A stretch of DNA of 62,979 nucleotides, the filler included, from Sluysia triapertura (taxonomy: Eukaryota): assembly GCA_046118255.1 (NCBI GenBank). It is 5 parts of 5 records of this genome, joined end to end, with 100 filler letters (N's around TTAATTAATTAA, not from the genome) between each part and the next. Parts side by side here need not be neighbours in the genome. Positions count along the whole stretch, not along the records: positions 22,899 to 34,623 come from JBJNIA010176140.1; 4 more parts are not named here. One strand, written 5' to 3'. The translations under genes were made by a program, and so were the position numbers. Below are positions 32,541 through 34,461 of this stretch, one piece after another. A model generated the notes under the pieces. The model was not told the DNA's origin. It worked only from the letters and a program-made list of their open reading frames with translations, and made no database searches. Every line of letters starts with the position of its first letter. Positions within the stretch are counted from its first letter, which is position 1.

Positions 32541-34461
32541 ATAATTTATAGATTCTACAACGAATTGTTATTATTTATGCATTTTGATTTAGATTTAAAA
32601 ACATGTAACTGGACGCGATGGTATGTTTTGGAAAATTTAAAATTATTTAGTATAATTGTGTTAATTTTGAATAGATTTAGGAATTTTAATGACTTTTTTT
32701 CATTTTAATTAATTTGAAAGTAAGGTCTACAATAAATCTAAATCAAGAAACTTTATATTTTAGGATTTTCAAAAATTTTAATAAATCTAACATGATAATA
32801 TTTTATAAAACCTTACATATCCTCAATATGCAACGTAAATATCGAACTTCTGTCTCATTCCTTCATTCCGAGGACCAAATTAAACTCAGTGTTAAGTGCG
32901 ACATCCTTGGAAACAGTGAGGTTATATTAAATCGGTTTCATAAAGAGAAAGTGGAGAAATATCTTCATGAACTAATTGATATTTCCAATAGCAACACTTG
33001 GAAATCCCACAAAATCCAGGGTCGTTTTGTGGACTGCTTTATAAAAAGCTCCTTATCCGATCGTCCATTTTCCCTACAACTAAACAATCAGACTTCGATC
33101 TTTTCTATTTGGAGAGAGAAGCGTGAAGAATAAAATTAAAGAAAGAGTCCACCAACGCACTGGGCTTACCAGCTAGGGCCAGCCGTTGGATTTTTGCAAA
33201 AGATGTTCTTAGAATGTAGCTTGGTTAAGTTTTTCTTTTTCCTACAAAGGCGTTCCTAGGCTAATCAGGCTTATTAAAAAAATTCTGGAGGCTTATTATT
33301 AAGATATTAATATTTAGATAGTTTGCACAAATCCTATTAAAAGGATCTTTTTAATTATTTTTTATTAACTTCAAATAACAAAATAAAATTCTCTTAAAGG
33401 TATATTAAAAAATGTATATACAAAGTTACAAAAAATTAAAGAATAATATAATAAATGATATTTTACAAGAGAATTTATTAATTCTCAAAAATGTCTATAT
33501 TTTAAAAATGATTTTACTTCGGATCTATGAAAAGATCCAATCAATAACAAAAGATTTTAGATGTATTTTACAGTGATACTATATCAGTATCTTCCCTTAA
33601 TAAAAATAAACTAACATAAAAACAGGGTTTTTAAAATATTTATCGATTCTTTTATAGAATATAATTTATTTTCACCAAAAATTTAGTGTAATTAAATTTT
33701 TTTATTGTCAGTTTCTTAAATATAATGATATATATGTTTTTGCGGGTTGACCTTGAAGGTTAAATTTAAATTTAAACAAATCAAAATAATTTAAATTAAT
33801 TATAAAATTCCCAATAAAATTACTAATTATTTAAATTTACATTAATAAAATTCAATAAAATGATTATATTAATAAAATTTAATAAAATTACTAAATATTA
33901 AATAAAATTACTATTATTGTAAAATAAATATTAAGCAAAATTTATCTCTTCAAACAAATACAATTACGATTTTACAAATGAACTTATATATTTTATTTTA
34001 TTATATTTAATTCTAATTATATTACATCTATGTTGAGCAGTCATTTAAATAATCCAGAAACTTATTCGTGAAGTCACAAAAATGTGTTATCCAATAAAAA
34101 ATTATTCTCCACGAATGTAAAATATTCAGTAGTAGCCACTGAATATTTTATAAACCAATCTTAAATTATGGTTAAGCAGCCACCTTTCGCTGTATGTTGA
34201 CTCCTTAGTGCGTATTGTTTTTAAAAACCGGCAAAAAATCAATTTTTTGTAAATACAAGACATTTTGGAGCCTTGTTTTGGCTAAAATTACAAAAACAAT
34301 CAAAATTTAATTGTAATTTTACATTTTGACCCTTTTTAGATCTTGTACATACATCGACTTTTATTATCTTTCATTTCGAATTGCTGCTTCGAAAAAAACA
34401 TTTTTATCAGTAAAAATATTCATTTATACTTTTTCAACAGAAGTAATAATAATAATTGCAC

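Follow-up and report, generated by a model that had tools for sequence, protein, structure and literature searches.

The Genomic Setting

The window, as we call the whole stretch of 62,979 nucleotides of Sluysia triapertura DNA analysed here, has a GC content of 24.5% and contains 482 N. It carries the final exon of a glycine amidinotransferase-like gene, which matches five proteins at 54-57% identity, along with EGF-like and leishmanolysin-like sequences and what remains of a Tc5/DDE transposase; judged from this content, the genome is that of an animal, poor in genes and rich in AT. A broken Tigger/pogo-type transposase lies at 48738-49600 (+), a reading frame weakly matching DUF3587 (E 0.0067) at 12343-12783 (-), and a tRNA-like remnant with A- and B-box-like letters, where ARAGORN makes no call, at 17156-17215 (+). 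A diverged G-rich repeat occupies 38329-38762 and 55850-56903 in three pieces of 69-82% identity.

Two related cassettes, at 30268-33133 (+) and 16453-15058 (-), have non-coding head pieces in common, followed in both by intronless frames with an Unkempt-like CCCH finger. The former additionally has a frame (31400-32050) with a weak likeness to aspartic protease (0.88), for which a homologue search found none. The frame at 32693-33133 has no credible homologue, its two matches being summed weak matches to repeat proteins, and a candidate RT fragment in it is accordingly unsupported.

Five Copies of a Conserved Motif

The initial annotation described five copies of a motif of about 50 nt, and all are present at the places and on the strands claimed. 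A covariance model built from these same five scores them at 66-80 bits; the next score in the window is 12.7 bits, and there is no sixth copy. Their GC content is 0.40-0.53 against 0.245 for the window, so they are indeed GC islands. They align over about 50 columns, 21 of them invariant, and form two subtypes: type I (19323, 33145 and 52435) and type II (8502 and 27445). The copies, and the parts of the focal copy at 33145, are listed below; the strands of the copies are those of the initial annotation.

33145..33195, plus: focal copy, type I, without the first two motif letters (GT) and with a T run at its end (33191-33195)
52435..52482, minus: type I copy, complete
19324..19370 (19323 in the initial annotation), plus: type I copy with a partly decayed outer stem, preceded by a purine-rich segment and an (ATT)4 run
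27445..27494, plus: type II copy, with an assembly gap 56 nt away
8502..8551, minus: type II copy, carrying at 8505, 8513 and 8549 unpaired letters that most related contigs lack
33152..33189, minus: covarying hairpin of the focal copy (outer stem 33152-33157/33184-33189, inner stem 33160-33163/33179-33182)
33164..33169, minus: invariant loop hexamer, GTAAGY on minus (donor-like) and RCTTAC on plus (branch-like or U1-like)
33145..33150, plus: 5' arm of stem A, the complement of 33162-33167; its sequence is conserved, without covariation
33175..33176, plus: invariant AG, which would close a GT-AG intron of 34 nt (type I) or 36 nt (type II) in the four copies that keep GT
33110..33144, plus: purine-rich segment loosely common to type I; on minus, a pyrimidine-rich spacer 3' of the hairpin
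33200..33330, plus: moderate-copy flank (depth 100-440), a putative subfamily-specific body, continuous with the motif in at least three contigs

In the best reading, the focal copy is likely to belong on the minus strand. Elsewhere in the window, at 58698-58715 (+), TTTT is followed by a close variant of the motif's 3' arm with its T run, next to a repeat in common with 375-456.

The initial claim that the flanks diverge largely holds; an exception is a purine-rich 5' segment of about 40 nt that the three type I copies loosely have in common. Of its 40 letters, 29-30 are purines (p about 0.01 each), and two of its three pairwise comparisons beat 297-298 of 300 random segments. Read on the opposite strand, it is a pyrimidine-rich spacer that ends in a short common motif. 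After the spacer, an (AAT)4 tail occurs in one of the five copies (19323), one has an imperfect run (52435), two have none and one runs into a gap; (AAT)4 occurs in 0.6% of random spans. Comparison of flank against flank gave, among the matches listed, only low-complexity likeness besides one block. That 120-nt block, common to 7533-7653 and 51001-51120 at 81% identity, has heat-shock-element and CCAAT-like sites, with a TATA-like site in the 7533-7653 member only. Each of its two members has a minus-strand motif copy nearby, at distances of 0.85 and 1.3 kb.

Copy Number, Edges, and Decay

Depth was taken from the contigs of one public run of unspecified kind, which is possibly the window's own source. 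Summed contig depth is no copy number, and loose ends are the safer count. To the region 33060-33330, 1,544 contigs aligned. Summed depth was 95,617-446,601 over 33150-33199, with single-copy contigs at 13-15; it was 0-66 over 33110-33139 and 100-440 over 33200-33330. The peak has sharp edges at 33145 and at 33193-33195, and at least 165 contigs (143 + 22) leave at the 5' edge and at least 195 (54 + 96 + 45) at the 3' edge, with flanks that differ. From this sharp pile-up with its many differing flanks, the motif is the core of a high-copy dispersed repeat. The majority letters of the loose ends restore GT before 33145 and continue the T run with G; on either side these letters are A-rich, with an agreement of 0.46-0.62. 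A separate, unrelated repeat with a depth of about 3,500-4,100 covers 33060-33109 and stops at about 33109, inside the open frame 32693-33133.

Over 7900-8800, the type II copy at 8502 forms a depth peak of 1,631-2,980. Of the ten variant places listed, three return to pairing in most of the depth: 88% at 8505, 73% at 8513 and 92% at 8549. Because related contigs restore pairing at these three places, the copies in the window are the decayed part of a large family whose masters keep the fold.

A Covarying Hairpin

Two folds are candidates for the motif. The first is a long hairpin made of an outer stem, a one-sided bulge and an inner stem, with 11-12 pairs and a loop of 15-17 nt. Covariation in the outer stem had been claimed at the outset and was borne out: two-sided changes occur in 7 of 11 hairpin pairs and 85.5% of 55 cells are paired, values that, coming from five related sequences in two subtypes, are counts and neither significance nor probability. 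Only 0-2 of 500 shuffles scored equally high, and slid controls gave 14-40%. The second fold is stem A, in which 36 of 40 cells pair, 8 of them as G-U on the strand used by the initial annotation (hereafter the annotated strand), but none of the eight pairs has a two-sided change. When the two were counted together, such changes fell in 7 of 12 hairpin pairs (0 of 500 shuffles) versus 0 of 6 for stem A. The focal copy has lost GT and two stem-A pairs.

The inner stem, earlier described as a competitor that excludes stem A, does exist, but it is not a mere rival, since it holds two of the seven compensatory pairs of the hairpin. In copy 19323, an inner-stem G-C pair has become A-U, a compensatory change that keeps the inner stem and breaks one stem-A pair. 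This is the sole change that separates the two folds, and it favours the inner stem over stem A. Taken singly, each of the five copies folds no better than shuffled sequences do, with z from -0.1 to -1.7.

The proposed pseudoknot or two-state switch is unproven, because it depends on stem A, which lacks covariation and is stable only on the annotated strand. In this proposal, stem A and the outer stem would form an H-type pseudoknot serving as a small self-cleaving ribozyme or an exonuclease block, with its 5' edge at a conserved G. The frequent pairing of stem A with its G-U pairs, the spacer of 11 nt between its arms in all five copies and the sharp 5' edge of the depth peak are what such an element might show, and loops of 1, 2-3 and 14 nt would, on general geometry, suit a classic H-type fold on the annotated strand only. 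We nevertheless consider a pseudoknot of this kind very unlikely, given the absent covariation, the broken stem A of copy 19323, the lack of a hammerhead core, of HDV helix order and of any Rfam match, and the fact that the copies, unlike retrozymes, do not stand in tandem arrays. A CUGANGA plus GAAA hammerhead core is found in none of the five copies on either strand, and no tandem unit holds the motif. HDV-like ribozymes follow a P1-P2-P3/L3-P1.1-P4 order. The copies depart from it, with 11-13 nt between the stem-A arms and L3-like heptamers in two of five flanks lacking a P3 stem. A frameshift or readthrough signal was also considered and rejected, the flanks not being conserved coding sequence and the focal copy following two stops.

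Rfam gave no match at gathering level in the window (seven weak, unrelated ones near 52435 and none near 27445), and a literature search, mainly of open papers and with Repbase and Dfam outside it, found no description of the motif. Ten viral and 15 metagenome loci that fitted the pattern are chance matches, none of the 25 fitting the covariance model, and type I patterns numbered zero in prokaryote genomes and zero in viral contigs. Among the viral, metagenome and prokaryote sequences scanned, there is nothing credible outside the motif's own genome. The covarying hairpin is real, high-copy and uncatalogued, and what stands of the initial description is a structured motif that belongs to a repeat family and to no catalogue, without its LTR setting.

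The Proposed LTR

One copy had been placed about 40 bp inside a solo LTR at 8078-8590. This interval does have TG..CA, 5-nt inverted ends and a 5-nt repeat, but TG..CA ends with a 5-nt repeat also arise at 46 of 1961 random anchors, and TG falls within a 9-nt span in 39%. The supposed interior, 8148-8457, has a depth of 13-81, where single-copy contigs have 13-15, and the end at 8078 falls within an unrelated high-copy repeat with pieces at 8002-8140, whose contigs cross that end. With chance-like ends and a near single-copy interior, the interval was rejected as LTR evidence; no multi-copy unit bounded by TG..CA and a target duplication was found. The 8002-8140 repeat itself, flanked by 7931-8001, reaches a summed depth of 39,335 and contains interlocking inverted repeats.

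A broader version would have the motif conserved as a signal in many diverged LTR families, placed some 40 nt in from one end (a packaging, priming or splice-donor hairpin located in R/U5). It could draw on the TG..CA and 5-nt repeat round 8502, on TG..CA with 7-nt inverted ends round 27445, and on the heat-shock/CCAAT/TATA-like block 0.85 and 1.3 kb from two copies. Random anchors yield such ends at the rates just given, the interior of 8078-8590 is near single-copy and its far end falls in another repeat, two of the five copies have no such ends, and the block is missing near the other three copies; a signal of LTR families is accordingly more improbable still than the pseudoknot.

Which Strand Carries the Hairpin

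With RNA parameters, the hairpin is lower in energy on the strand opposite the annotated one in all five copies, by small differences (0.6-5.3 kcal/mol). With DNA parameters, the copies split 3 to 2 for the annotated strand, and the hairpin is weak in three of five. Stem A is favourable on the annotated strand only, its energy being positive in four of five copies on the other. An A opposite a C inside the hairpin (A33159/C33183 in the focal copy) is invariant in all five and becomes G-U on the opposite strand; at this column (8509), a Watson-Crick pair takes its place in 27% of the type II depth. Non-Watson-Crick hairpin cells are G-U on the opposite strand in seven cases versus two on the annotated strand, five of the seven coming from one column, while one type I and one type II T-G pair favour the annotated strand. 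On these predicted energies and pairs, the hairpin is likely to be read on the opposite strand.

A Candidate Retroposon 3' End

Published systems are compared below by the features that the cited parts of each source describe. The structure kept across subtypes, the decay of copies, the unrelated bodies and the fixed loop point to a cis-acting end signal of non-autonomous elements. The motif most likely works like an end-recognition hairpin, which we assign to no family, and an end signal of a mobile-element family is likely, rather than a new ribozyme in an LTR. Our tentative choice, held with somewhat less than even confidence, is the 3'-terminal recognition stem-loop of a non-autonomous retroposon. 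The element would be transcribed on the strand opposite the annotated one, and the reverse transcriptase of a partner retroposon would bind the stem-loop and copy the element RNA into DNA. Such an enzyme may read the stem by shape, which would give covariation, and the loop and the foot of the stem by sequence, which would give invariance. Bodies would vary among subfamilies or be lost by 5' truncation, and genomic copies would afterwards decay neutrally.

Several observations suit a retroposon end. The conserved stem-loop lies near what depth suggests is the element's end, and on the opposite strand the multi-copy flank 33200-33330 is on its 5' side and the drop to 0-66 on its 3' side; covariation, the opposite-strand energies in five of five, the type I spacer and the single (AAT)4 are further points in favour. 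The proteins of zebrafish LINEs recognise the stem in a general way and are specific for the loop (PMC4176376), and this pattern matches the motif and is taken as support. Like the stringent LINE tails and their SINEs described there (ZfL2-1, ZfL2-2 and UnaL2), the motif has a bulged stem kept in shape and a loop kept in sequence, and it stands near one end of a dispersed repeat with differing bodies (PMC4176376). It differs from them in its longer stem and loop, in a spacer of about 40 nt before any tail, in a tail that is clear in one of five copies, and in that no partner RT, tRNA head or target-site duplication was found (PMC4176376).

Other results count against a retroposon end. No target-site duplication of at least 7 nt surrounds the core in four of five copies, and in the fifth a single 7-mer duplication overlaps low-complexity DNA. 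A clear repeat tail is missing in four of five (one imperfect). No RT, endonuclease or Rep domain was detected in six frames of 25201-37802, the one part covered in this way, the rest of the window being covered as 20 open frames. Over 1.5 kb on the body side, none of the five copies has a Pol III B box; no tRNA gene was called in the window, and an A/B-box test for a tRNA-derived SINE was negative. The small strand energy differences, the 3:2 split with DNA parameters, the two T-G pairs and the shuffles that single copies do not beat also weigh against it. A retroposon end, moreover, leaves the complementarity between the 5' octamer and the loop without explanation.

Three further systems were compared by features, using PMC6431247 beside PMC12582326 and bioRxiv 10.64898/2026.07.22.740005. 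Flatworm spliced-leader RNAs have a donor-like GT in the first hairpin and then a U-rich stretch (PMC12582326), as the motif does on its opposite strand. The AUG before the GU donor and the UVUUUGG Sm-like motif that this source gives for them are each found in none of the five copies on either strand, and the would-be leader varies by subtype (PMC12582326). Penelope-like pLTRs, including those of hammerhead-less Naiads, resemble it in 5'-truncated high-copy ends, a 30-40-bp tail, microsatellite targets, kept short introns and gene capture (PMC8557442, PMC3846280). By contrast with the pLTRs as these sources portray them, no tandem or inverted pLTR arrangement, RT/GIY-YIG or hammerhead was seen: the window self-comparison held no partial tandem or inverted pLTRs, and 25201-37802 no RT/GIY-YIG. 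Retrozymes (bioRxiv 10.64898/2026.07.22.740005) and, by their generally known layout, HDV-like retroelement ribozymes are also small conserved structured islands with a diverging rest; the motif has the catalytic core of neither class and is not tandem.

A Rolling-Circle Alternative

The motif might instead be the right end of non-autonomous rolling-circle transposons of Helentron/HINE type, in which Rep/helicase copying would be halted by a hairpin in single-stranded DNA of the opposite strand, with the T-rich 3' flank serving as target; we judge this unlikely, although less so than the pseudoknot. HINE subfamilies are defined by their last 60 bp and have T-rich targets (PMC4067079), and the HLE2/Helentron definitions used here come from parts of PMC4067079 and PMC11417382. 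The motif fits a HINE in that its conserved block measures about 55-60 nt, the bodies are unrelated and the 3' flank on the opposite strand is T-rich (PMC4067079), and very high copy number, a stem-loop end of about 60 nt and the absence of a duplication are likewise features of HINE/DINE-1 and HLE2 (PMC4067079, PMC11417382). A left end could be represented by the lone near-copy of the outer arm that follows TTTT at 58702. Against this, a search of 4 kb on either side of the five copies, limited by gaps, turned up no inverted partner that scores above the null, the best reaching 14.7-21.8 bits against a null with a median of 17.5 and a maximum of 23.4, and no conserved 12-15-bp subTIR adjoins the hairpin (loose-end agreement 0.46-0.52). 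With 11-12 pairs and a 15-17-nt loop, the hairpin is far larger than the 5-10-bp palindrome of HINE/DINE-1, for which subTIR pairs are described (PMC4067079, PMC11417382), and with DNA parameters it is weak in three of five copies. The CTRR expected about 11 nt after the hairpin of a Helitron (HLE1) has no common place, and three of five copies have none.

A Candidate Structure-Locked Mini-Intron

The letters fixed across both subtypes are GTGAGT, CTTAC, and an AG 34 or 36 nt from the G, with GTGAGT and CTTAC complementary at a constant 11-nt spacing; the initial annotation had already drawn attention to a donor lying under a U1-like hexamer. On the annotated strand, GT-AG lengths in the four GT-keeping copies are 34, 34, 36 and 36. 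These letters would suit a self-blocking mini-intron of 34-36 nt with a GTGAGT donor, a CTTAC branch site and the invariant AG, in which donor-branch pairing (stem A) and an exon-intron hairpin would be two states, unspliced or spliced, that control the element RNA. In this candidate reading, thousands of copies of a mobile, self-locking intron would have a donor that pairs with its own branch site and a downstream exon that folds over both. Judged by its sequence signals, such an intron is improbable, less so than the pseudoknot and more so than a rolling-circle end.

It would account for invariant letters that are just these three signals, for related contigs that restore GT before 33145 and GTGAGT in type II (8549), and for a stem A stable on the annotated strand only. 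The length agrees with the flatworm intron peak near 36 bp (PMC5036155), assuming a flatworm host; flatworm intron length distributions are multimodal (PMC6157073), at least in the parts of these sources used. Penelope-like elements, moreover, keep 5'-UTR introns (PMC8557442) and can carry host genes (PMC8557442, PMC3846280). What argues otherwise is that there is no polypyrimidine tract, that a GC content of 40-50% is unlike the host introns seen, that the letter before GT is mostly other than G, that the invariant AG pairs with the invariant CT as well, that an AG at 30-40 nt also follows many unrelated GTRAG sites in the window, and that stem A lacks covariation. Separately, an intron on the opposite strand was rejected, AG having no common place there (34, 32, 40, 65 and none).

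Significance

Under the preferred reading as the end hairpin of a retroposon, the motif would mark a repeat that ranks among the most abundant in this genome and would offer a handle for finding its autonomous element, and its many natural variants would supply a strong covariation set. Were the self-locking intron true, two folds would switch splicing or self-cleavage of the carrier RNA on and off, and the family would be a transposon-spread splicing switch with a fold found in no RNA catalogue. Either a structure-locked intron or a catalytic pseudoknot, if proven, would be a new small RNA switch.
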